A stretch of DNA of 64,000 nt, taken from an uncultured bacterium. Lineage in GTDB: Bacteria; Patescibacteriota; Patescibacteriia; Magasanikbacterales; GWA2-37-8. The notes under the pieces were generated by a model that worked only from the letters and a program-made list of their open reading frames with translations, was not told the DNA's origin and ran no database searches. Positions 10,107 to 60,291 of the stretch are shown here, piece after piece. How positions within the stretch are numbered: position 1 is the first letter of the stretch; every line of letters begins with the position of its first letter. A program made the translations under genes and the position numbers. The stretch covers positions 3,275 through 67,274 of the forward strand of contig CALCZC010000025.1 in the NCBI GenBank assembly GCA_937903605.1, in the 5' to 3' direction.

Positions 10107-10135
10107 TTGACAAAACTCTTAAATTAAGGTACTTT
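10107..10135 (+). promoter_or_regulatory. sigma70 promoter of cassette 1
   Basis: TTGACA-17 nt-TACTTT, then SD AAGGGAG before ATG 10186. Confidence 0.65.
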
Positions 10136-10185
10136 AGATAGTCGTTCGTTTACAATTTTATAGTCATTTTATAAGGGAGTTCGTC

Positions 10186-11718
10186 ATGAACACGTTTATC
10201 GCTCAGCAATCGTTGATCTGGATCCTCCTTTGTCTTTGCCTGATTCTTTTGGCGCTTCATTTCAAAAATGCGATCAAAAAGAAGAAAGAAAAACAAAGAC
10301 AGGATTTGGCTTTGGCAGAAGCCAAGAAAGAAGAAAAGCGTATGCTGGATTTACGAGAAGTATTACCCAAGCTTTTTACCGGCGCGCAACTAGATCATTT
10401 ACGGGCTAGACATTTCATTTTCAATGTCATGACGGCCGAAGAAAGAGACACAATGGCGCAGTGGTTTGAAACTCATGTGGAAATTTTCGGAAAATTTGAT
10501 TTTGAAACAGTCATTTCTGAGGAAAAAAGACCGCTGTTGAGCTTCGATGAATTTCAAGCTCTTTTTATGGTCGTTTTTAACGAAGGTTATTTTGATGCGA
10601 ACAAATTGCCTTTTGGTGGACAGTTGGAAATGTCTCAGAAGCTCAAATGGGCACAAATCCGTTTACGCTCTTCCATGCCGTCCAAAGAAGCAGAGGATGA
10701 AATGGACCGCTTAACCAAACAGGTGCGGTTTAGCCTGGAAGATCTCAACAGAGTGCGTAAATTGGCGGTCGCTGAGTTTGAAGCTCTGCAAAAAAAATCT
10801 CTGGAATTTGACCAGGTATTGGATAGATCGGAAAAAGCGGAAAAAGAGCGCTGGGAACTGTTTGTAGATACCAGGGAATTTTTGAAAGATTGGCCGGAAA
10901 TGAAAAAGGCCCTTTCCTTAGCTCGGTCTGAATACGAAGAACATCTCAAGGAATTGCTTGGTATCAAGAAAATGGGGATAGTTCAGATTCTCAAGGATAT
11001 TGCCGGTCACACCGAGGATCTGAACAAAATCAAAAAAGCCCTCGTTGACATGGAGAAGTGGCGTAAAGATAAGGAGAGTCTTCTGGAAAATAACCTGAGC
11101 AACCATCTGAACAAGATGTTTGAGCAGGCCAAAGACGATGCTGCTTTGCAACGTAAGCAGGCTCTGGATGAAATATCCAAAGTTGTGCATCAAGAGCTTG
11201 ATAAAATGGGTGAAGAAATTGCAGAACTACGTCAGAAGTTTGAAATGGTCCCTTCCGTGGTTGAAAAAAAGAAGGAAGAAGGACAATTCAACTGGTCTGC
11301 GACTATCTATGCTTTTTTTTCCATTTGCCTCATTGTTTTCATCTGGAGAGATCTTTCCAGAGAGAATGACCAATCGATGGTGGTTTTGGATAAGATCGCT
11401 CCGGTGGTGCAAGAAAATAATCTACTTTCCGATTCTGATCCGGAGGAATTTATTACAGTAGAGGAAAACGAGATACCGCCTTTTTATTCCGTTAACGAAG
11501 AAGAAGAAACTTCTTATGTTGAAGAAAAAGAATATTTGGAAAAAGAAACTAATTTTAATGAAGAGCCGAAATTGGTTCCAGTGCCGTTGATAGAAAAAAA
11601 GATAGCAAAAAAAGTTTTGGCTTTATGTCAGGACAAGAAATGCTGTCTTGATAGGTTCGGCAAGGACACTAAGACTTGGCCGCAGGCCATAGAGTGTATG
11701 CGATCAGTAAAAAAGTGA
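10186..11718 (+). CDS. Membrane-anchored coiled-coil protein (2 TM, acidic linker, Cys-containing C-terminus)
   Basis: TM at the N-terminus and near aa 370-388; long heptad region; C-terminal LCQDKKCC...EC; SD present. Confidence 0.8.
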   Translation: MNTFIAQQSLIWILLCLCLILLALHFKNAIKKKKEKQRQDLALAEAKKEEKRMLDLREVLPKLFTGAQLDHLRARHFIFNVMTAEERDTMAQWFETHVEIFGKFDFETVISEEKRPLLSFDEFQALFMVVFNEGYFDANKLPFGGQLEMSQKLKWAQIRLRSSMPSKEAEDEMDRLTKQVRFSLEDLNRVRKLAVAEFEALQKKSLEFDQVLDRSEKAEKERWELFVDTREFLKDWPEMKKALSLARSEYEEHLKELLGIKKMGIVQILKDIAGHTEDLNKIKKALVDMEKWRKDKESLLENNLSNHLNKMFEQAKDDAALQRKQALDEISKVVHQELDKMGEEIAELRQKFEMVPSVVEKKKEEGQFNWSATIYAFFSICLIVFIWRDLSRENDQSMVVLDKIAPVVQENNLLSDSDPEEFITVEENEIPPFYSVNEEEETSYVEEKEYLEKETNFNEEPKLVPVPLIEKKIAKKVLALCQDKKCCLDRFGKDTKTWPQAIECMRSVKK

Positions 11719-11733
11719 CTATATAAATTTTAC

Positions 11734-11762
11734 AAGGTCGGCCCATAAAGCCGACCTTTTTT
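11734..11762 (+). terminator. Intrinsic terminator
   Basis: AAGGTCGGC-CCATAAA-GCCGACCTT followed by a T run. Confidence 0.85.
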
Positions 11763-11880: not shown

Positions 11881-11909
11881 TTGACAAAATTGTCTATTTG
11901 TGCTATAAT
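11881..11909 (+). promoter_or_regulatory. Perfect consensus sigma70 promoter
   Basis: TTGACA-17 nt-TATAAT with extended TG; near-duplicate at 19967. Confidence 0.85.
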
Positions 11910-12145
11910 ATGTCGTTACAATCAAAAAGGATTTTGATCCACTGTGGAAGAGGGTGATCAAAAGAACTATGAAAATAACTCCTTCCCGGGAGCGTTTTTT
12001 GTTCTTAAAATAAATTTTCTTTTTAACTGCACGGTTTAAAACATAAACCTTGTTAATAAGGAGAAAATTGTTCATTAAAATTAAAGATTTCGTTTATATA
12101 GGAAGTCCAGGATATTAACAACAGGAAAACACCAGGAGGTGTACG

Positions 12146-13129
12146 ATGAAGAAGATGATGCTTTTTGTCGCGATAGTTTTCGCGATGGTTACCGTGACTG
12201 CGCAGCAGAGCGTGTATCCCCTTAATCCCAGTTCCACAATCACGGTGCAGGAATGCATCGATCTGATGAACGCTGCCAAAACCGCCCAGACCAAAACCAC
12301 CGAAATGAAAAAGAAAGTGGAAGGGGTGGTCGCTGCTGTCAAAAAGGGTAACAAGACTCCGGAAGATGGGTCCAAAGAGATCTCCAAAGAGATCAAGGAG
12401 AACCCCGAAGTTCCTCTGGAAAGCAGAAAGGCGGCTAACGAAGTTGCCAGGAAAGTCCTTTATAAAAAGGATCTGACCGAAGCAATGGAAGCTTTCGAGA
12501 CCACTTTCAAGGCGGACCTCGCCAGATTGGAGGAGAAAATCTCCGGTCTTGAGGAAAGGATGGCAAAGCTTGAAGAAAGCGATGCTAAACAGAATGAACG
12601 CCTTGGCAATGTCGAGGAGGTGGTCGCAGATCATGAAAACCGGCTGGATAACCTGGAAGAGGGAATATTCTCCGGTTACTTCGGTGCAAAGTTTCTCACT
12701 TCTTCGGTGTTCGATACTGCCGGTGGTGGCGAACTGGGTATGACCGTGAAAATCGGCAAGCTCAATGGCCCGTTCAAAGCCGACTTCGGCGCAACCCTGT
12801 ATGGTTCGGAGATCAAAAATCTCATAGGAATCGAAGGCAGGGGCATAATCACCTGGATGAGCGACGATTTCAAATTCGTCAAGCTCGGCCTTGGTGGTAT
12901 GGGCGGTGGCATGTTTGATGTCAATAACGCCGGAAGAGTTTCCACTTCCTACGGCGGTGGGCAGTTCGAGATTTCGGCCGTTTACAAACGGTACGAGCTC
13001 TATGCCGATGTCAACCTCGGCGCAAGGGACATGCGCAAGATAAGCGGCCAGCACGAAACCAGTTTCTACTGGGGAGTGATAACTGGCGTCCGCATAAACT
13101 TCGGCGGTCCGTTCGAGACCGTCAAGTAA
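12146..13129 (+). CDS. Secreted coiled-coil protein with a C-terminal predicted outer-membrane-type beta-barrel
   Basis: SD AGGAGGT; Sec signal peptide; coiled coil (LARLEEKISGLEERMAKLEE); about 8 amphipathic Gly/aromatic strands ending FYWGVITGVRINF. Confidence 0.7.
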   Translation: MKKMMLFVAIVFAMVTVTAQQSVYPLNPSSTITVQECIDLMNAAKTAQTKTTEMKKKVEGVVAAVKKGNKTPEDGSKEISKEIKENPEVPLESRKAANEVARKVLYKKDLTEAMEAFETTFKADLARLEEKISGLEERMAKLEESDAKQNERLGNVEEVVADHENRLDNLEEGIFSGYFGAKFLTSSVFDTAGGGELGMTVKIGKLNGPFKADFGATLYGSEIKNLIGIEGRGIITWMSDDFKFVKLGLGGMGGGMFDVNNAGRVSTSYGGGQFEISAVYKRYELYADVNLGARDMRKISGQHETSFYWGVITGVRINFGGPFETVK

Positions 13130-13227
13130 AACGAATATCTTTAAAACGGGAGGGTGAGTTCTTCACCCTCCTATCCCAATCCTTGTCAATAACTTGTTTG
13201 TTGACAGAGTAATGGGAAACCATTAAC

Positions 13228-13243
13228 TGCTCTTTGAAAATTT
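13228..13243 (+). promoter_or_regulatory. boxA-like (Nus factor) element
   Basis: TGCTCTTTGAAAATTT matches 10/12 of E. coli rrn boxA TGCTCTTTAACA; lies in the 5' leader after two hairpins. Confidence 0.6.
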
Positions 13244-13322
13244 GCTGTAGAAAAAACCCTTTGAGAGGGTTTATATATAGAGGTTACAGGTAGTTTCATA
13301 ACAAACATCTTTGGAGGATGCC

Positions 13323-14174
13323 ATGAAGAACGTACTTTTTTTCTTTGCCGTCGTGTGTGCGATGGTTTTCACCGTTTCCTGCGCCAACTGCACTTACAAT
13401 GAGAAGCTCGGCGCGTGTATCGAAGACATGCCCGAAGAGACCGATGACGCCAAGACCGACATCGACGACGCCAAGACCGACGACGAAAAGTCGGACACCG
13501 ACACTGTCGAAGGTCCCAAACAGGGTGAAGAAGGCGGAAAATGCTTCGCCAACAAGTCCTGTATGGAAGGGCTGGAATGCATTAAGCTCAATGAAGACTA
13601 TATCTGCATCGTAGCAGAAGAAGTCGATGACGACCTCGCAAGCGACGACGAAGAGACCGACGACGAAACCAGCGATGATGACGCAGTCGATCCCGACCTT
13701 GGAAAAGAAGGTCATGGCTGTCTTCCGAACGGAACCTGCAACGAAGGTCTCGTATGTGACCAGGCTTCCGAGAACGAAACCGATGTCTGCGTAAAAGCGG
13801 TCGGCGTAGTCGGAGATAAGGACGGCTCGTGTAAGCCCGATCGGACTTGTAACACAACCTCACTGGTTTGTTACCGTGAAGACTTCGTCTGTCATAATAT
13901 GCCGACCGTCGGCACACGCACCGTTTGCTGGTCGCGTGAACTCAATACCTCACCGGTGCAGGATTCCTGCTCGAAAGAAGGGGGCATCGCTCCCGCGGTA
14001 TTTGAGTATGTCAGCGGGACAAAAACCCCGAACTGCGAAGGACTCGTGAATGTGGACCCGGAGTTCGAATGCGTGCGTATCAACGCAACGGTCGAAACCT
14101 TCCGTAATTCCACACCGGCCGAGCGAGATGACCTCGCCCTCACTTCGTCGTTCTACCTTCCGCCCATAAATTAA
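13323..14174 (+). CDS. Cys-rich/Asp-rich lipoprotein (paralogue A)
   Basis: SD TGGAGG; signal peptide ending TVS-C; three G.EG..C..N..C..GL.C modules separated by acidic linkers. Confidence 0.85.
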   Translation: MKNVLFFFAVVCAMVFTVSCANCTYNEKLGACIEDMPEETDDAKTDIDDAKTDDEKSDTDTVEGPKQGEEGGKCFANKSCMEGLECIKLNEDYICIVAEEVDDDLASDDEETDDETSDDDAVDPDLGKEGHGCLPNGTCNEGLVCDQASENETDVCVKAVGVVGDKDGSCKPDRTCNTTSLVCYREDFVCHNMPTVGTRTVCWSRELNTSPVQDSCSKEGGIAPAVFEYVSGTKTPNCEGLVNVDPEFECVRINATVETFRNSTPAERDDLALTSSFYLPPIN

Positions 14175-14220
14175 CGGCGGACCCCAAGTGCTTTTGGGGT
14201 GACTACAGCAACTTTTACTT

Positions 14221-14250
14221 GACAGCCGATGCACCGGCTGTCTTTTTTTT
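14221..14250 (+). terminator. Intrinsic terminator
   Basis: GACAGCCG-ATGCAC-CGGCTGTC followed by T8. Confidence 0.85.
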
Positions 14251-14282
14251 ATCAATTTTCCCCTCCTTTTGATAAGAGGAGG

Positions 14283-14302
14283 CCTGCCTGCCGGTAGGCA
14301 GG
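14283..14302. repeat. Short GC-rich palindrome (REP-like)
   Basis: CCTGCCTGCCGGTAGGCAGG, intergenic near-perfect palindrome. Confidence 0.55.
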
Positions 14303-14331
14303 ACTAGGGTGGAGTCAAGTGGAAAAAATAG

Positions 14332-14360
14332 TTGACAAATTATAAATTTTATGCTACATT
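14332..14360 (+). promoter_or_regulatory. sigma70 promoter
   Basis: TTGACA-17 nt-TACATT with extended TG. Confidence 0.75.
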
Positions 14361-14439
14361 TAGCTGTTAAAAGATTTTCCTTTTTCGGCGCTTTTAATGG
14401 GTTTTTTGTATTTATTTTGAAAGTGCAAAAAAGAGGGAA

Positions 14440-14455
14440 AGCTCTTTGAAAAATT
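14440..14455 (+). promoter_or_regulatory. boxA-like element
   Basis: AGCTCTTTGAAAAATT in the leader between promoter and SD. Confidence 0.6.
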
Positions 14456-14525
14456 AGCAACTTTAGATAGGGAGAACAGAATGAAAAACGGTTTTAACAA
14501 CAGCAACTGCACGGAGGTGCACGCA

Positions 14526-17500
14526 ATGAAGAACTACTTCGTTTTTTTCATCGCCGTAGCGATGATGCTCATGCTTGCTTGTGAAAGCAGCAAAGACGGT
14601 CGTGATGGTCGTGATGGTCGCGATGGTATCGCGGGCCAGGACGGCCAGGATGGTCAGGACGGGGAAGATGCTCCGGTTTCGCTTTCGCGCTCCGAAAAAG
14701 CGAGTGAAGAAGAAGCGCGTGAGAACTGTGGCGAGGACATCGTCAACGCCAATTGGATCTGTACCGGCGTGGACGAAAATGAAAATGGCTATCTCGACGA
14801 TTATGAATTCGCCGAATGCCATATTGAATGCGCGGGTGCGCCCGGTCACAGTGCATTGGTTGCAAAAACCGATACCACACAAACCGAGTGTCCCAACGGC
14901 GGATTTCATTTTCTTTCCGGTATTGACACCAACGACAATGGCGAGCTTGATGCCGAAGAAGTTTTGGTTGATGAGCTCGTTTGTAACGGCGTTGATGGTC
15001 AGGATGGTATCGGTGATGTAGTTCGTACCAGTACGGAACCCGCCGGCACCAACTGCCAAAACGGTGGTCAGAAAATCGAGCGTGGTCGCGATCTCAACCG
15101 CAACGGTCAGCTGGATGTGTCCGAGATTACCAGTACAAATTATGTATGCAATGGTATTGACGGTACGAACGGGCATGATGCGAGGACTCGCACCAGTATT
15201 ACCAATGATCCGACATTGTGTGCCAGCGGTTCCGGAGTTATTTTTGAATCCGGTACTGACAACAATGACAACGGAGTGCTCGATGATCCGGAGGTTTCCA
15301 CTACGGATGTTATCTGTGATGGTGCCAACGGTAAGACCACACGCATGATCGTGGCCACAGAACCCGCAGGAACAAACTGCGCAGTCGGCGGTTTTTCCGT
15401 CGTTTATGGCGTAGATGAAAATGACAATGGACTTCTCGATACTACCGAGCAGTCGCCCGCACAGTACATCTGTCATGGACAAGACGGTTACAGTGTCGTG
15501 ATGAGAGTCACGGCTGATATTGCTGTTTGTTCATGGAACGGATACAGGTTGCAGTTCGGTCAGGATCTTGATCGTAATGGTATCTTGGATACCGGCGAGG
15601 AAACATCCGACTTTTATATCTGCAACGGATCCGATGGTCTCATTTCCCGCATCAATATTTCCGACGAGCCCAATGGTGAAAACTGTGCGGCCAGCGGAAA
15701 AAGAATAGATACGGGGATGGACATCAATCGCAACGGCCTGCTTGACAGCACCGAGATTACCACGACCAACTATGTCTGCAACGGTGTGCAGGGTCCGCAG
15801 GGAGTTCGGGGATACAATTCGCTTTCGCGGATAACTCCGGATCTTGGCGGAACAGTCTGCACCTGGGGTGGATATTATTTGGAAGTCGGCACAGACATCA
15901 ATGAAGACTGGATCTTGGATCTGGATGAAGTTGGTCACAGTGCTTATGTCTGCAACGGTATAGATGGTAAGACCTGCAGTTCCATACTCAACGATGAACC
16001 CATCGGTACGAACTGTGCTTACGGCGGAAAAATCGTGTATTCCGGTTGTGACGATGATTACAACGGTGTGCTGGACCTCTACGAGGTCGTTCATACCGAC
16101 TACATCTGTAACGGCGCCACCGGTGCGATAGGTCCTGCCGGGTACAATGCCCTGACCAATATGCAAATAGCGGTCAGCGGTTGTCCCAATGGCGGATATG
16201 TTTTCACTGCCGGCACAGACGCCAATGATGATCAGATCCTTGATCTCACGGAAGTGACGGTCACGAATCTTATCTGTCATGGTGTCAATGGCCAGGATGG
16301 TTATACCTATCGTGTGCAGATGGTTGATGAACCCGTGAGTACAAATTGTGTTCAAGGTGGCAAGGCTATCAGTGGAGGTATAGACAGCAACCGTAATGGT
16401 GTGCTCGATCCTTCCGAAGCCGATGATCCGGTTTACATCTGTCATGGTGCAAACGGACTGCCCGGCGCCAATGGTCAAAACGGTCTAAGTATGGCTTTTG
16501 TCATCAGCGTGGCGAGCATTTCCGAATGCCCGGCCGGTGGTGAGAAGCTGGAGCTTGGATTGGATATTGATGCCAGTGGCGTGCTTGAGCTCGTTGAAGT
16601 TACTAGCACGGTTCTCATCTGCAATGGTCAGAACGGTCAGAACGGTAAAAATTCTTTGACCACTATGACCGTGGAGCCCATAGGTACAAACTGCGCCAAA
16701 GGCGGCCATCTCTTGTTGGTCGGTATTGACGACAATGAAAACGGTATTTTGGATTCCAGTGAAGCCGGGGTTCCGCAGTATGTCTGCCATGGTTTGGATG
16801 GCATCAATGGTGCCAACGGGACCAACGGCCACAATGCTTTGGCGATGGTTACCACATCCACTTTGGGATTCTGTCCCAATGGCGGATCCGAACTGCGGAC
16901 CGGAACTGATCTCAATGATGATGGGGTTTTGAATGCGGGCGAAGTTTCTTCGTTTGCGCTTATCTGTAACGGCCAGAACGGCGCCAATGGTGCCGACGGT
17001 TACAGCTCCAGAACTACGATGATCAGTGAGCCCGCAGGTGCCAATTGCCAGGCCGGAGGATTTTTTATTATCTCCGGTACTGATACCAACAACAACGGCG
17101 CGTTGGATGTTACGGAAATTGAATATTCCGGATACATCTGCAACGGCATAAATGGGAATCCCGGCAGTAATGCCGTAACCCGTGGCCGTCTCGCGCTCGT
17201 TTCTGAATGTCTTAATGGCGGAAGCATCGTGGAAACCGGTACGGATAGTAACAACAATGCTGTACTGGACGATGTGGAAGTCATGACGATAAGTTATCTC
17301 TGCAACGGTGATCCGGGAACAAATGGCCAGGATGGCATTTCCTATCGTGTTATCATCACCAATGAATCCGCTGGAATTAATTGTCAGGCCGGTGGAAAAA
17401 AATTGGAAGGTGGTTACGATACTAACAGGAATAATATCCTGGATCCAGGCGAAATCGTAATGACCGAGTATGTCTGCAACGGCATGGACGGTCAGGATGG

Positions 17501-18296
17501 TCAGGATGGTGTGAACGCACTGCTGCGTATGGAAGATGAACCCGCAGGGGTAAATTGCGAACGCGGTGGCAAAGCAATCCTTTCCGGTTACGATCTGGAT
17601 AGTGATAATTACCTGGATGACACCGAAGTGCTTGCACAGAGTTATCTCTGCAACGCCAAGATCGTTTACTCGGTTGGCGCAGAAAGCACCTATGGTACAT
17701 TCACGGCCTATACAGCCAGCACGGTTTCGTATTGCAAAATATATGGTACGACTCTTGAAGCCGTTGCTTACATTAGCGATGTGGGTAATGCGGCGGTAGT
17801 GGCTACGGATTGGGAAGCGGTGGAGTGTTTCAACACTTCCCATGTCCGGGTGAACATCATTTCTTGTTCCGGTAGCGGTTTTGCGCAGAGCAATGTCGGT
17901 GTGTGCACTTATGACGGATCCGTGTATGCGCGTGGCGGTTTGGGGCAGACTTGTAAGCCCAATCGTGCGTGTGATAGCGGTGTCTGCCGACTTCTGGACA
18001 CGACCTGCATTACCAAACCCTCTCCGGGAGCGGGCGAATACGCTTTTTATTGGGACGGCACTATGAACTCCGGCGGAACCACTTGCGAAAGCTATGGTGG
18101 TAACTACTACTCACCGGTGGTGGGTCAGTGGGATATTTCCGGAGTGCCCAACTGTAATGCCGATCTCGGTGATCCGGTTAGGGGACTCAAGTTCTACACC
18201 GGGTGCATCACGGATCAGAGTGATTTTGATACTCTTGATCCTGCCACTCGTCATTGCACCGGTCCGGCTTATGCCACGGTGCTGGCGCCCTGGTAA
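14526..18296 (+). CDS. Large repetitive lipoprotein: 18 Cys-bracketed DxNxNGxLD Ca-binding-type repeats with collagen-like linkers (paralogue B)
   Basis: SD CGGAGGT; lipobox MLA-C; repeats (EPxGxN)CxxGG...GxDxNxNGxLDxxE...xCNG; GxxGxx linkers; C-terminal domain shared with neighbouring genes. Confidence 0.9.
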   Translation: MKNYFVFFIAVAMMLMLACESSKDGRDGRDGRDGIAGQDGQDGQDGEDAPVSLSRSEKASEEEARENCGEDIVNANWICTGVDENENGYLDDYEFAECHIECAGAPGHSALVAKTDTTQTECPNGGFHFLSGIDTNDNGELDAEEVLVDELVCNGVDGQDGIGDVVRTSTEPAGTNCQNGGQKIERGRDLNRNGQLDVSEITSTNYVCNGIDGTNGHDARTRTSITNDPTLCASGSGVIFESGTDNNDNGVLDDPEVSTTDVICDGANGKTTRMIVATEPAGTNCAVGGFSVVYGVDENDNGLLDTTEQSPAQYICHGQDGYSVVMRVTADIAVCSWNGYRLQFGQDLDRNGILDTGEETSDFYICNGSDGLISRINISDEPNGENCAASGKRIDTGMDINRNGLLDSTEITTTNYVCNGVQGPQGVRGYNSLSRITPDLGGTVCTWGGYYLEVGTDINEDWILDLDEVGHSAYVCNGIDGKTCSSILNDEPIGTNCAYGGKIVYSGCDDDYNGVLDLYEVVHTDYICNGATGAIGPAGYNALTNMQIAVSGCPNGGYVFTAGTDANDDQILDLTEVTVTNLICHGVNGQDGYTYRVQMVDEPVSTNCVQGGKAISGGIDSNRNGVLDPSEADDPVYICHGANGLPGANGQNGLSMAFVISVASISECPAGGEKLELGLDIDASGVLELVEVTSTVLICNGQNGQNGKNSLTTMTVEPIGTNCAKGGHLLLVGIDDNENGILDSSEAGVPQYVCHGLDGINGANGTNGHNALAMVTTSTLGFCPNGGSELRTGTDLNDDGVLNAGEVSSFALICNGQNGANGADGYSSRTTMISEPAGANCQAGGFFIISGTDTNNNGALDVTEIEYSGYICNGINGNPGSNAVTRGRLALVSECLNGGSIVETGTDSNNNAVLDDVEVMTISYLCNGDPGTNGQDGISYRVIITNESAGINCQAGGKKLEGGYDTNRNNILDPGEIVMTEYVCNGMDGQDGQDGVNALLRMEDEPAGVNCERGGKAILSGYDLDSDNYLDDTEVLAQSYLCNAKIVYSVGAESTYGTFTAYTASTVSYCKIYGTTLEAVAYISDVGNAAVVATDWEAVECFNTSHVRVNIISCSGSGFAQSNVGVCTYDGSVYARGGLGQTCKPNRACDSGVCRLLDTTCITKPSPGAGEYAFYWDGTMNSGGTTCESYGGNYYSPVVGQWDISGVPNCNADLGDPVRGLKFYTGCITDQSDFDTLDPATRHCTGPAYATVLAPW

Positions 18297-18314
18297 GTTG
18301 CTTTAGTTCATTTC

Positions 18315-18342
18315 AGGCGGTCCTTCTAGGACCGCCTTTTTT
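18315..18342 (+). terminator. Intrinsic terminator
   Basis: AGGCGGTCC-TTCTA-GGACCGCCT followed by a T run. Confidence 0.9.
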
Positions 18343-18353
18343 ATTATAGGTAT

Positions 18354-18409
18354 TTGACATACATTGATGAGTGATATATAATGGTTTGTTAAAAGTTCTT
18401 TGATATTTT
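18354..18409 (+). promoter_or_regulatory. Consensus sigma70 promoter followed by a boxA-like element
   Basis: TTGACA(18354)-17 nt-TATAAT(18377); AGTTCTTTGATATTTT at 18394. Confidence 0.8.
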
Positions 18410-18447
18410 AGACAGATAATAAACCATAATTCATGATGGAGGTTGTC

Positions 18448-19854
18448 ATGAAAAGTGTAGTTTTGACCGCGGTTGCGATCTTTTTTGTTTCCATGTTTTT
18501 CATTTCCGGATGTGCCAACTGTAATTATTCCGAACAGTTGGGAGCGTGTCTTGAAGAGACACCGGATAATGGTGTTGACAAAGAAAATAATGACAATTTT
18601 GTTTCAGACAAAGAAATGACTGATGAAGAAGCCAACAATTTGCCAAAAATCGGTGAAGAAGGCGGAGGGTGTTATCCAAACGATACTTGTGACTCCGGTT
18701 TGAAGTGTATCAAGATCAATGAGAAGATGATGTGTATCAAATTGTCCGAAGAAAAAGATGCAGAGGTTGAAGTTCAGGATTTTGCTGTTGAAAACGAATT
18801 ACCTGATAATGATACTGCATCAAACACTGAGAATGATTCTTACTATCAAGATGACACTGAATCATCTGATTTTGAAAATGAGATACCGGATGTTGATCAT
18901 GTTATCAAATGTGATAAACCGGTTGTAGCCGTAGCCTTCAAAGGACCGCAAGGTTATTGTGGTGGCCAATTTCCTTTTGGCCGTTGGCATGACAATGCGG
19001 TTGTTAAAACCGGACAAGAAGTGACCATAGTAGTTGCCAACCCGTTGGGGACTATTCCGACAGGATACAATCTTGCCAATGAGCTCAAGATAATGGTAAA
19101 AATTTCCCAAGATACGGATTATCTCAACAGTAACTTATCTAATGGATTTTTTATTGGAAACAACGCGCTGACCATGGGTCTTACACCGGGTGGTGGTAAC
19201 AAAACGGAAATGAAATTGATTTTTGCAAAAAAATCATCTTCCATTATGGAGCCACAGAAAGTGATTGTCTCCATAGTTCAAACCACCGGTTATGACGGAT
19301 ATGTTGCCCTTGAGAAAGATAAGTTCGGCGGAGTCTATTGTAGCCCCCATGGAACCTGTCCCGTTTTTAGCGAAGTGATTTTGTGGGTAGTCGACTCTTC
19401 CGATTCCATTCAATGGGGTGAACTGAATCAGAGATGTTTGCCGGATAAAAGATGCTCGCGAAATTATTCCGACCAGTGTGTATCCGGTGACGATCAAGAA
19501 TACTTTTGTACCCAATATGGAAATACTTGTGTTTCCAAACCAAAATTGGAAGTGGATCAGGAATATCGCTATTGGGATGCTACCATAGATTGGTATACAG
19601 GTTCGAACTCCGTTTATAACGGTAAAACCACCTGTGAAAGCAAAAGTTCGAGCAATCGTTTTTGTTATCCACCCGATCCATGGACTTGGAATAACGATAG
19701 TGTTTTACCTGCCTGCCAATGCAGTGACAACTCCTTGTTTAAGCCGGCTGGTGCAATGGGATGCGTTGTTGATAAAGGAAGTCGGTGGGTAGATTGTAAA
19801 AGCGATATTTTTTGGAAATACAATTTTTACTCACCCTCCTATATCTGTCAGTAG
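18448..19854 (+). CDS. Cys-rich/Asp-rich lipoprotein (paralogue C)
   Basis: SD TGGAGGT; lipobox ISG-C; N-terminal CANCNYSEQLGAC shared with paralogue A; GEEGGGCYPNDTCDSGLKC module. Confidence 0.85.
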   Translation: MKSVVLTAVAIFFVSMFFISGCANCNYSEQLGACLEETPDNGVDKENNDNFVSDKEMTDEEANNLPKIGEEGGGCYPNDTCDSGLKCIKINEKMMCIKLSEEKDAEVEVQDFAVENELPDNDTASNTENDSYYQDDTESSDFENEIPDVDHVIKCDKPVVAVAFKGPQGYCGGQFPFGRWHDNAVVKTGQEVTIVVANPLGTIPTGYNLANELKIMVKISQDTDYLNSNLSNGFFIGNNALTMGLTPGGGNKTEMKLIFAKKSSSIMEPQKVIVSIVQTTGYDGYVALEKDKFGGVYCSPHGTCPVFSEVILWVVDSSDSIQWGELNQRCLPDKRCSRNYSDQCVSGDDQEYFCTQYGNTCVSKPKLEVDQEYRYWDATIDWYTGSNSVYNGKTTCESKSSSNRFCYPPDPWTWNNDSVLPACQCSDNSLFKPAGAMGCVVDKGSRWVDCKSDIFWKYNFYSPSYICQ

Positions 19855-19874
19855 TTGATAATATAGTTCTTTTT

Positions 19875-19902
19875 AGGTGGCTCTTCTAGAGCCACCTTTT
19901 TT
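19875..19902 (+). terminator. Intrinsic terminator
   Basis: AGGTGGCTC-TTCTA-GAGCCACCT followed by a T run. Confidence 0.9.
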
Positions 19903-19966
19903 ATTTAGTAAAAAATGGCTTAAATAAGCAAAATTTATTTTGGCTAAGATTAGCTAAGTTTACCCC

Positions 19967-19995
19967 TTGACAAAATCGTCAAAATGTGCTATAAT
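19967..19995 (+). promoter_or_regulatory. Perfect consensus sigma70 promoter
   Basis: TTGACA-17 nt-TATAAT with extended TG; paralogous to the promoter at 11881. Confidence 0.85.
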
Positions 19996-20201
19996 ATCAC
20001 GTTACAATCAAAAAGCGTTGGAGAGAGCGCGGAAGTAATAAAAGGCCAAATTCCGTATCTCTCTTTATCAAAAGAGAGTTTTGTTTTTCTAGCCCATTAT
20101 CCCATCAACTAGATTGATTGGATAAAGGAGAGAAAAAATAAAAATCAGGTTCCTTACAATATAGAGTTAGAGTCCAAAAAACCAATAAGTGGAGGAAAAC
20201 C

Positions 20202-21362
20202 ATGAAAAAGCTCATCACCACGGTTGTGGTCGCCTTCTTTTTCGTCGCCTGTGGCGGCAGCAATGTCAACAATGTCAATGACGAATTCGTCGGCAACGAC
20301 GAAAGCATCAATGATGAAATCACCGACAACGAGACTCCCGATGAGATCGTCAGCGATGACGAGATTAACTGGGATGAAGTCGGCCATGAAGGGGAGCCAT
20401 GCTTCCCGAACAATACTTGTCACGAAGGGCTTAAATGCCGTGACGGCAAGTGTGTGGACGACGGTGGCATGTCCGATACCGGTAAACTCAATCATGAGTG
20501 TTACCCGGACGGTTCATGCAGATCAGACGACATGATCTGTGAGGAAGGAATTTGCGTCGAGCGTAAAGCCGATGCGGATGAAACTCTCACGGATAATGAA
20601 GTCGCGGATGATGTTGTGACTGATGACGAAACTTCGGATGAAATCATTTCCGATGAGGAAGTGGTGGATGAAGAAGTGATGACTGACAACGACATCGTTG
20701 ACAATCCCGTGGTCGACAATGACACGGCCGAAGATCCTCTGACCGGGATTGAAGCGGGACATCCCTGCTACCCCAACAACACCTGCGATAGTATCAAAGG
20801 TCTTGTATGTCAGAACGGTCTCTGTCAGTATCCTGGCACCACGCCGGATGTTGATACTGCGACTCCGGACGAGGACGAAGTCCTTGTCGATGATGAGACA
20901 GTCACTGATTCCGACGTTGCTTCTGATGAAGAAGTGACAGACGATGATGTGCTTCTCACAGAAGAAGAACCGGTGGTTGATAATGATACCACTGAAGTTC
21001 CGGATCAGGACAATCTGCCGTCCGACATCGGAAACAAGGGGCAGAGTTGTTACCCCAACCACACCTGTAATGGTGTGCTGGTCTGTATCGTTGGCACTGA
21101 AATATGTGCTGATGAACCGATTGCTGTCCTCGGACAGTATGAGGGCAGATGTTGGGACTACAAGGATCCTCTTACAGGAAAAACCACCTGTGAAAAAGAG
21201 GGCTGGTACTGGTCTCCTGCTATCTGGGCCGAGACTTCGGACCAATTCCCGCTTTGTATCGGTAGCAGCACCAGACGTCCGTATCTTGCGGAATGTCAGT
21301 TGCAAACCAACAGCGGAGAGCCTCGTAGTTCGGTGTGGTATAAATATCCGACCACGCCGTAA
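20202..21362 (+). CDS. Cys-rich/Asp-rich lipoprotein (paralogue D)
   Basis: SD TGGAGG; lipobox FVA-C; four G..G..C(Y/F)P(N/D)..C...L.C modules separated by D/E/T/V-rich linkers. Confidence 0.85.
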   Translation: MKKLITTVVVAFFFVACGGSNVNNVNDEFVGNDESINDEITDNETPDEIVSDDEINWDEVGHEGEPCFPNNTCHEGLKCRDGKCVDDGGMSDTGKLNHECYPDGSCRSDDMICEEGICVERKADADETLTDNEVADDVVTDDETSDEIISDEEVVDEEVMTDNDIVDNPVVDNDTAEDPLTGIEAGHPCYPNNTCDSIKGLVCQNGLCQYPGTTPDVDTATPDEDEVLVDDETVTDSDVASDEEVTDDDVLLTEEEPVVDNDTTEVPDQDNLPSDIGNKGQSCYPNHTCNGVLVCIVGTEICADEPIAVLGQYEGRCWDYKDPLTGKTTCEKEGWYWSPAIWAETSDQFPLCIGSSTRRPYLAECQLQTNSGEPRSSVWYKYPTTP

Positions 21363-21479
21363 ATTCTAACTCTAGGATTTAACATAATGGACCGGGCACC
21401 TGACTTTACGTCAAGGCCCCGGTCCAATCTTTATATGAGATTGTCACATTCTCTCCTGATGACGATCTCAGATAATATC

Positions 21480-42138: not shown

Positions 42139-42339
42139 CTAAACAGTGGAATTAACAGCTTTGACATCAAACGCGTGTATGGGCTTTTCAAAGCCTTCGA
42201 GTTTCAACATCAAAACATCGGTGTTGTGAGGACCTCCTCCACTAGGGGAAGTGAAGAAGTAATCTTTCACAACAACTTCTTTTCCTTCATAAAGAACTTT
42301 TTTGCCTTTTTCAATGAAGCTCGGTACGTGTCCGCTCAT
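42139..42339 (-). CDS. Small hypothetical protein (66 aa), SD-led stand-alone gene
   Basis: GGAGG-ATCCC-ATG at 42339; own promoter TTGACA(42402)-17 nt-TTAAAT and own terminator. Confidence 0.7.
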   Translation of the reverse strand: MSGHVPSFIEKGKKVLYEGKEVVVKDYFFTSPSGGGPHNTDVLMLKLEGFEKPIHAFDVKAVNSTV

Positions 42340-59551: not shown

Positions 59552-59604
59552 TTGACAAAATAGGGAACTTTTGCTTAAATCAAGGTAGAAGTTCTTTTTA
59601 TTTT
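59552..59604 (+). promoter_or_regulatory. sigma70 promoter plus weak boxA-like element for the ankyrin gene
   Basis: TTGACA-17 nt-TTAAAT with extended TG; AGTTCTTTTTA at 59590; SD AAGGAGGT. Confidence 0.65.
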
Positions 59605-59626
59605 ACTTCTTTAGAAGGAGGTTATT

Positions 59627-60256
59627 ATGGCTTTAACAAAGCATGTAGTCGATTTTGTTCTGAAACATCTGGAACAAAGAAATTATTTGGTAAAATTTCT
59701 GTCTCCGCTTATCAAGGACTCAGTCATTTTGCCGGAAGAAGAAAACGATGACGGGACTAGCTTCTTTGCAGCTTTTGTATCAATCGGAAATCTCGTTTTT
59801 TTGACAGAAGCCTATTCCAAGCTCAATCCTGTTAAGCGCAAAGACGTGCTTAACAAAGTGGACAGAACCGGAGCGTCAGTGCTCGACAGGGCCTATCTCT
59901 TGTCGGTTGATGAAGCCGATCGGGAGAAAATCATCCAGTTTCTGCAAAGCCAGGGTGCGGAAATTATCGGGTACAAAGCTCTGAACCATTTTATCGAAAG
60001 AGGAAATCTCGCAATAGTGGAAACACTCTGTCGACATTGTACGGACTTTTCTGCTTGTAATAAGTCGGGCAAAACCCTTTTGATGTTGGCGGCAAAAACC
60101 GGACAGATGGAAATCGTTCGTTATTTGGTGGAAGAGTTAGCTGTTAATCCGAGAGAAAAGAACAAAGAAGGAGAGACAGCTGTTGATTTTGCTCAAACTA
60201 TGGAACACAAGGAAGTATACGAATATCTGAAGAAGAAAATTTCAGATACCCTCTGA
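59627..60256 (+). CDS. Ankyrin repeat protein
   Basis: GKTLLMLAAKTGQMEIVRYLVE, NKEGETAVDFA, GNLAIVETL. Confidence 0.88.
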   Translation: MALTKHVVDFVLKHLEQRNYLVKFLSPLIKDSVILPEEENDDGTSFFAAFVSIGNLVFLTEAYSKLNPVKRKDVLNKVDRTGASVLDRAYLLSVDEADREKIIQFLQSQGAEIIGYKALNHFIERGNLAIVETLCRHCTDFSACNKSGKTLLMLAAKTGQMEIVRYLVEELAVNPREKNKEGETAVDFAQTMEHKEVYEYLKKKISDTL

Positions 60257-60263
60257 AAGGGTC

Positions 60264-60291
60264 AAGGATCGCCATCAAGCGGTCCTTTTTT
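60264..60291 (+). terminator. Intrinsic terminator
   Basis: AAGGATCGC-CATCAA-GCGGTCCTT followed by a T run. Confidence 0.75.

Follow-up and report, generated by a model that had tools for sequence, protein, structure and literature searches.

Nus factors are known to act on rRNA, in phage lambda, on CRISPR arrays, and on a few autoregulated genes. CRISPR arrays are noncoding and require protection from Rho. Here we describe boxA-like elements in the leaders of protein-coding genes of a tiny, uncultured and host-dependent bacterium of the Magasanikbacterales (Patescibacteriota), as seen in a 64,000-nucleotide stretch of its DNA (the window; assembly GCA_937903605.1, contig CALCZC010000025.1, positions 3,275 to 67,274), in the remainder of its genome, and in related genomes. 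In Escherichia coli, a boxA located 5' of suhB's Shine-Dalgarno (SD) sequence represses translation, an effect that survives a 100-nt insertion and depends on the full Nus complex on RNA polymerase; repression then ends in Rho termination (10.1101/091223). According to the survey in the same report, 940 gammaproteobacteria carry 0 to 7 perfect boxA sites per genome, most of them autoregulatory, and a boxA in front of rpsJ is a known site class reported in other genera (10.1101/091223). Furthermore, boxA occurs in the leaders of CRISPR arrays (PMC13753749). In pre-16S rRNA, the leader-trailer helices are 25 to 40 bp long, and a model has been described in which boxA-bound NusB retains the leader 3' of the box at the exit channel up to the emergence of the trailer (PMC10250234).

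The genes described here share with rrn operons the core letters of boxA and a segment, 3' of the box, that base-pairs with the transcript's other end, and the Nus genes are encoded, with nusB adjoining the gene for RNase III. In contrast to rrn operons, the box heads protein-coding, SD-led genes in about 70 copies, the helix measures only 8 to 16 bp and is found in a subset of genes, the box lies mostly outside this helix, and neither Rho nor SuhB was found. As at E. coli suhB, the predicted rpsJ sites, and lambda nutL/N, the box lies within ∼50 nt of the start codon and 5' of the SD; unlike at suhB, where repression terminates via Rho, the class comprises a whole accessory gene set in a lineage without Rho. 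CRISPR leaders are similar in employing boxA beyond rRNA operons, but they precede noncoding arrays. Bacteroidota with SD-blind ribosomes likewise have no SD at most genes and retain the anti-SD, yet the accessible text of the two reports describes no large SD-plus-boxA accessory class (PMC7797042, PMC13000453). A literature search, with most subscription journals and supplements outside its scope, returned no paper on boxA or on an SD-plus-boxA class in Patescibacteria.

The genome of the window (G000; other G numbers denote related genomes and L numbers loci) comprises 1.13 Mb at 36% GC and is 99.8% complete. Two contigs were excluded from every class count: C10 (L002), which was binned with the genome but is mitochondrion-like, with a divergent small-subunit (SSU) rRNA and, by eye, a cox2-like gene, and C16 (116 kb), which looks like a phage or a contaminant and has 86 of 147 genes led by an SD, but no box. 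Excluding these, a strong SD was present at 89 of 872 called genes. Genes and promoters were called with purpose-written scripts, and these calls include start errors. Promoters were classified by promoter and SD alone, without using the motif, which resulted in 82 SD-led and 103 SD-less promoters (185 in total). A search for patterns without a seed, within 35 nt after the -10 box, revealed G..C.TT, the best among many patterns searched (p uncorrected), in 54/82 SD-led versus 9/103 SD-less promoters. With a leave-one-out matrix, whose seed fixed the conserved letters that the unseeded search had found beforehand, 48 of the 82 SD-led but only 2 of the 103 SD-less promoters scored above 8 bits (p=1e-19), compared to 1% of shuffles and 1/82 on the antisense strand; both SD-less promoters scoring as boxed have an SD farther downstream. 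The core of the motif, placed after the promoter, reads G-T-W-C-N-T-T. When a Gibbs search was run without masking, it recovered the SD.

These counts extended genome-wide what an initial annotation had proposed from seven boxA-like strings of the window, all of which are indeed present at the given coordinates on the plus strand, each 5' of an SD and an open reading frame (ORF). Its grading of the sites was reversed, however, when they were scored on the genome's own consensus: the supposedly weaker sites scored highest (10143, 12.7 bits; 20148, 12.2 bits; 12069, 11.6 bits; and 59590, 9.8 bits), site 18394 reached 9.7 bits, and the two textbook GCTCTTTGAAAA sites scored lowest (6.0 and 5.3 bits). 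As to the possibility, raised at the same time, that such a motif is equally frequent in random intergenic DNA, enrichment irrespective of position was only mild (sense versus antisense, 90 versus 56 above 8 bits and 34 versus 13 above 12 bits); the signal lies in the placement within SD-led leaders. In 40 of the 48 boxed leaders, the box starts 6 to 14 nt after the -10 element, i.e., right at the RNA's 5' end as judged from predicted transcript starts, and in 43 of 48 it is separated from the ATG by 23 to 43 nt. Long leaders, for instance in four of the six cassettes that form an island in the window, have the box farther from the promoter (78 to 160 nt).

Counted independently of promoters, the class comprises 69 genes plus the two GCTCTTTGAAAA sites. 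Class genes stand alone and share one layout of promoter, box, SD, a single ORF, and terminator, and 56 of 69 end in an intrinsic hairpin terminator. Their products are short (median, 165 aa), and no Pfam family was detected in 51 of 64 scanned products (60 class genes and 4 related ones); those with names include PurA, NDK, an H+-pyrophosphatase, a ThyX-like protein, a receiver domain protein, a helicase, an M16 peptidase, and ankyrin and DUF7151 proteins. Codon use of class genes is unlike that of native genes, their third-position GC is higher (0.40 versus 0.31), and T directly precedes the start codon in only 10 of 69 class genes compared to 602 of 721 native genes. When applied unchanged to related genomes, the matrix again separated SD-led from SD-less promoters in G002 (13/30 versus 0/42), G003 (6/18 versus 0/14), G162 (5/10 versus 1/13), and G029 (4/16 versus 1/14). 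In orthologous leaders, the box is retained at corresponding positions, while its loose positions and flanks differ; the ortholog of the first island gene, at locus L228, is 63% identical. RNA-library contigs from four runs of three studies overlap parts of island genes, with cassette 2 present in all four, although these runs were found by using the island, and the contigs carry no strand, ends, or level.

One class gene, purA, was surveyed using the copy in the genome of the window (C26:17576-18871) and loci L198 to L248. In a quick tree, an SD-less operonic clade was separated from a divergent, long-branch lineage of stand-alone, SD-led genes. Genomes with SD-led purA are often without a purB-type lyase (none in G000, G003, G024, and G165), whereas such a lyase is present in 25 of 26 genomes of the operonic clade. 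G002 and G007 possess a purB-like lyase, which is itself led by promoter, box, and SD.

The invariant letters of the motif correspond to G2, C5, U7, and U8 of boxA. G2, C5, and U8 are contacts of NusB/E, and position 6 is a protein contact as well (PMC3177189). Position 6 is variable both in class boxes and in the rrn boxes of relatives, and residue S128 of Aquifex NusB, which reads this position, is replaced by Gly in 30/30 NusB proteins of the order; within the same pocket, F122 is retained and E81 is changed to D. A variant boxA of Bacillus subtilis, AUGAUCUUUGAAA, is bound by NusB (PMC13753749). Since the sole SSU match of our genome sits on the mitochondrion-like contig and its own rrn operon is unassembled, rrn leader and anti-SD were taken from relatives. 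Among 13 rrn leaders of the order, 8 contain a boxA pattern, compared to 0 of 13 on the antisense strand and 6 to 10% of shuffles. The comparison with rRNA leaders suggested by the initial annotation was thus made on relatives, whose rrn-leader box matches the motif found here. In these relatives, the box opens the leader strand of the helix formed with the 16S trailer, a helix that was strong in 5 of 7. Moreover, a perfect boxA is located 19 nt 5' of the SD-less start of rpsJ (nusE), at C28:39676-39695 (L108), where it likely mediates NusE autoregulation. The genome encodes nusB, nusE, nusA, and nusG, as well as RNase III. At L001:1483-2870, the nusB gene, directly 5' of that for RNase III, specifies an acidic C-terminal tail of ∼50 aa. 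By contrast, the suggested role in protection from Rho is unsupported and is unlikely to be the function, because rho was not found in this genome and was found in only 1 of 151 genomes of the order. Both the boxA-like identity and the restriction to SD-led leaders were thus upheld: on the sequence evidence, the element resembles boxA by every test available, yet it cannot be classified as a Rho antiterminator, and most likely it is a true boxA that would load NusB-NusE.

By analogy with E. coli, we consider it somewhat likelier to be right than wrong that the box defines a second, stand-alone and SD-led gene class, on which a Nus complex would hold the leader and keep ribosomes off while, in the island, the ends pair, with translation following later. 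The box would load NusB-NusE, a Nus complex of the rRNA type would tether the leader to RNA polymerase, and the Nus loop would likely block ribosomes from the nascent message. In island cassettes, the held leader could then pair with the stop-codon region, as in pre-rRNA, and the finished, end-paired mRNA would be released and translated afterwards; the SD is located outside the leader-trailer helix. Without Rho, a repression step of the suhB type would leave a full-length, ribosome-free mRNA with pairable ends. Nus binding, looping, and delayed translation are all modeled here on the E. coli precedent. The distance between box and ATG in the class is within the range (∼50 nt) over which boxA represses translation of suhB. 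Because the suhB boxA of E. coli represses translation and Rho was not found, the box would cause uncoupling rather than protect against it. Of the earlier proposal that these messages are translated elsewhere or later, "later" is plausible, whereas "elsewhere" has one good hint in its favor (a barrel protein without BamA, see below) and several results against it. As relatives retain the anti-SD, we regard the cell's own ribosome as the default reader of the message.

All six island cassettes lie on the plus strand. Cassette 1 has a sigma70-type promoter (TTGACA-17-TACTTT; 10107 to 10135), followed by the 12.7-bit box (10144 to 10155), whose form is identical to the rrn box of two relatives, a leader arm (10159 to 10170) complementary to 11712 to 11723, spanning the stop codon, an SD (10175 to 10179), a 510-aa ORF with a hydrophobic N-terminal segment and no Pfam family (10186 to 11718), and a terminator hairpin (11734 to 11758). 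In cassette 2, the promoter (TTGACA-17-TATAAT; 11881 to 11909) is followed by a structured leader of ∼230 nt with the box at 12070 to 12081 and an arm at 12081 to 12095, which can form 15 bp with one bulge with 13129 to 13144. Its SD (12134 to 12139) precedes a 327-aa ORF (12146 to 13129) with a signal-like N terminus, a helical/coiled-coil part, and a predicted 8-stranded OmpW/OmpA-like barrel; a hairpin at 13148 to 13172 is without a U tract. The segment between cassettes 2 and 3 (13148 to 13206) contains this hairpin and a second inverted repeat, and is possibly the processing site of a two-gene, two-box transcript, as in rrn operons. Cassette 3 comprises a box (13229 to 13240), an arm (13237 to 13250; complement, 14203 to 14216), an SD (13313 to 13317), a 283-aa ORF for a Cys-rich, acidic putative lipoprotein with only four homologs (13323 to 14174), and a terminator (14221 to 14242). 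As its own promoter is weak (3.6 bits), it may be part of the transcript starting from 11881, of which its box would possibly be a second, internal one.

Cassette 4 has its promoter at 14332 to 14360, the box at 14441 to 14452, a weak, 8-bp arm at 14456 to 14463 (complement, 18295 to 18302), an SD at 14513 to 14517, a 1256-aa ORF for a putative lipoprotein with 17 DUF7151 repeats at 14526 to 18296 (alternative start, 14481), and a terminator at 18315 to 18337. In cassette 5, promoter (18354 to 18382), box (18395 to 18406), another weak 8-bp arm (18411 to 18418; complement, 19842 to 19849), and SD (18438 to 18442) precede the 468-aa ORF of a Cys-rich putative lipoprotein (18448 to 19854) and a terminator (19875 to 19897). 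Cassette 6 again has a structured leader, of ∼200 nt, after its promoter (19967 to 19995); the box (20149 to 20160), a 12-bp arm (20162 to 20173; complement, 21363 to 21374), and the SD (20191 to 20195) are followed by a 386-aa ORF for a Cys-rich putative lipoprotein (20202 to 21362) and a hairpin (21388 to 21426). The structured leaders 5' of the box, at 11910 to 12066, 14361 to 14438, and 19996 to 20145, contain purine-rich/pyrimidine-rich stems like those of relatives' rrn leaders. A separate class member outside the island (59552 to 60287, plus strand) consists of promoter (59552 to 59580), box (59591 to 59602), SD (59616 to 59621), an ankyrin-repeat ORF (59627 to 60256), and terminator (60264 to 60287); end pairing was not detected in it. 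Elsewhere in the window, a 1722-aa ORF without Pfam family (4841 to 10009) lies immediately 5' of the island, a 66-aa SD-led orphan on the minus strand (42139 to 42339) has a promoter but no box, and a tmRNA with smpB (473 to 1466) provides the only Rfam match; a tRNA-Ile with anticodon UAU is encoded at C7:136730-136803.

The idea of end pairing arose by eye from the island leaders of the window, so that the relatives provide the fair test. In the island, the leader just 3' of the box is complementary to the stop-codon region of the same gene over 8 to 16 bp. Among 71 trailers, the cognate one ranked 2, 0, 4, 0, 5, and 3 for the six genes, and folding of whole mRNAs yielded the leader-trailer helix in 5/5 tested cassettes. 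Across the class, mean pairing was -10.7 versus -9.3 kcal/mol (p=3e-4); no signal was seen in 84 SD-less controls (p=0.22). When compared with 868 trailers, 9 of 11 cassettes in G002, G003, and G261 paired at p≤0.05; their arms differ in letters and begin 10 to 17 nt after the box G. One G002 cassette was left out because N is read at its 3' end. In the G003 island, a box and a predicted leader-trailer duplex are present in all six cassettes. In cassette 2, the arms were exchanged in G002 and G003 with complementarity retained, and the C-terminal coding region was exchanged alongside. Complementary ends were thus retained despite changed letters, but in the island only. Pairing was commoner with long leaders (12/33 versus 10/61) and with long genes; it was not associated with secreted proteins (11/44 versus 15/66), and purA leaders gave no signal (n=6, p=0.70). 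The geometry of the island would fit the NusB leader-holding model for pre-rRNA.

Several observations weigh against delayed translation through a boxA-bound Nus complex. No box above 8 bits occurs within the first 45 nt at 34 of the 82 SD-led promoters, although some are boxed farther down, and in the GC-rich relatives G024 (1/13) and G026 (0/9) SD-led genes are without a clear box. The box is nearer to the transcript start than in rrn leaders, and a PF00459 search of the genome did not recover SuhB, which belongs to the complex in E. coli. Only three of the six window cassettes passed an ungapped pairing test. The strictest genome-wide test recovered 9/69 class genes versus 5/77 controls, and a looser one recovered 14/69 versus 3.5 expected; pairing is therefore not general, and the island helices are shorter than those of pre-16S rRNA.

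We regard it as fairly improbable that the likeness to boxA is incidental and that the motif serves another factor, or acts as a passive 5'-end stability or translation-enhancer element on SD-led mRNAs read by the cell's own ribosomes. The short and degenerate motif, its usual location at the extreme 5' end, and the missing SuhB would be in line with such a role. However, the identical core opens the helix of rrn leaders and precedes rpsJ, the single loose position matches the altered NusB residue, and long leaders place the box 78 to 160 nt away from the promoter. Processive antitermination protecting untranslated stretches from an early stop, as put forward in the initial annotation, is the classical role of boxA (PMC13753749) and would suit a cassette of 3.8 kb, or cassette 3, if it is reached by read-through from cassette 2. 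It nevertheless appears quite unlikely given that Rho was not found, that the median product has just 165 aa, that 56 of 69 class genes stop at an intrinsic terminator that must work, and that the hairpins of long leaders sit 5' of the box. That the cassettes are foreign, and the motif a leftover from donor leaders or noise in AT-rich sequence, is highly improbable. While orphan products prevail (51/64 without Pfam family) and third-position GC is shifted, the box is shared by unrelated genes and is kept at corresponding places in orthologs whose loose positions and flanks change, and none of 11 SD-led promoters on the phage-like contig C16 has one; enrichment, transfer to relatives, orthologous leaders, and this contig have together already largely refuted such an origin.

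A further explanation, which we find rather unlikely, is that class messages are meant for the host: the box would bar the parasite's mostly SD-independent ribosomes, and the closed mRNA would be exported and read by host ribosomes via its SD. The different start signal and codon use of native genes (few strong SDs, T before the start) would agree with this, as would the divergent SD-led purA lineage, often without a purB-type lyase, but G002 and G007 do have this lyase, box- and SD-led, and the class is not GC-richer in G162. A VirB4-like ATPase is present, and relaxase-less type IV secretion would be a candidate route, since type IV secretion systems of the candidate phyla radiation are mostly without relaxase (10.1101/2025.01.22.634366). 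A good hint comes from cassette 2, for which an 8-stranded barrel following a signal peptide is predicted. At E≤0.001, Foldseek returned 13 matches for it, every one an outer-membrane barrel, and the C terminus is Y-x-F in 3 of 5 homologs. Such a barrel in an order in which 0 of 151 genomes yielded BamA hints at a use in the host. Yet the model is of moderate confidence, with a mean predicted local distance difference test (pLDDT) score of 63.6, and the window copy carries an extension and ends without an aromatic residue. A model of the G002 barrel region had a pLDDT below 50. Syntenic copies of cassette 2 in G002 and G003 retain the N-terminal part and have a different, all-beta C-terminal part ending in Phe. 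For the barrel and cassette 3, no named relatives were found, and a donor or host can therefore not be named.

Other results speak against translation by the host. Relatives retain a CCUCCU anti-SD (23/23 rows, 21 distinct), and G149, which has no anti-SD, is without the class in 232 kb (strong SD at 6/222 genes, boxed promoters 0/2). Across the phylum, 41 16S 3' ends could be read, of which 39 were canonical, 1 was a variant (CCGCCU; L071 of G152), and 1 was without anti-SD (L092 of G149); 9 more were unreadable. For comparison, an anti-SD was reported in only 48% of Parcubacteria (PMC9297842). Lgt (41/41) and LspA (38/41) are present, so that lipoproteins can mature at home, and a PAS-domain kinase-like gene is available for the receiver protein; arguments that the lipoproteins, or a receiver protein without partner, need the host thereby failed. 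Finally, proteins rather than RNA could be delivered, and we know of no export of bacterial mRNA into another bacterium. We therefore give only a small chance to a scenario in which boxA mRNAs are finished ribosome-free, closed, passed to the host, and translated there via a host-type SD, with products that remodel the host.

The window contributes the out-of-sample statistics and the match between the NusB Gly and position 6. It further adds end pairing throughout an island of six genes, with arms that have been replaced, and places in the class both a predicted barrel of outer-membrane type and a distinct purA lineage. If our preferred reading of the box as a Nus-loading boxA holds true, a genome-wide, boxA-tagged class of mRNAs in the absence of Rho would represent a new role of Nus factors, namely control over the time, and perhaps the place, of a message's translation. 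With the box as a tag, accessory and possibly host-directed genes of Patescibacteria can be picked by a simple rule on sequence; host interactions of these bacteria have been described as largely unknown (PMC11665869). What the parasites supply to their hosts thereby becomes a testable question. Should export prove true, mRNAs would act as effectors between bacteria, and outer-membrane, surface, and metabolic proteins would be made in the host.

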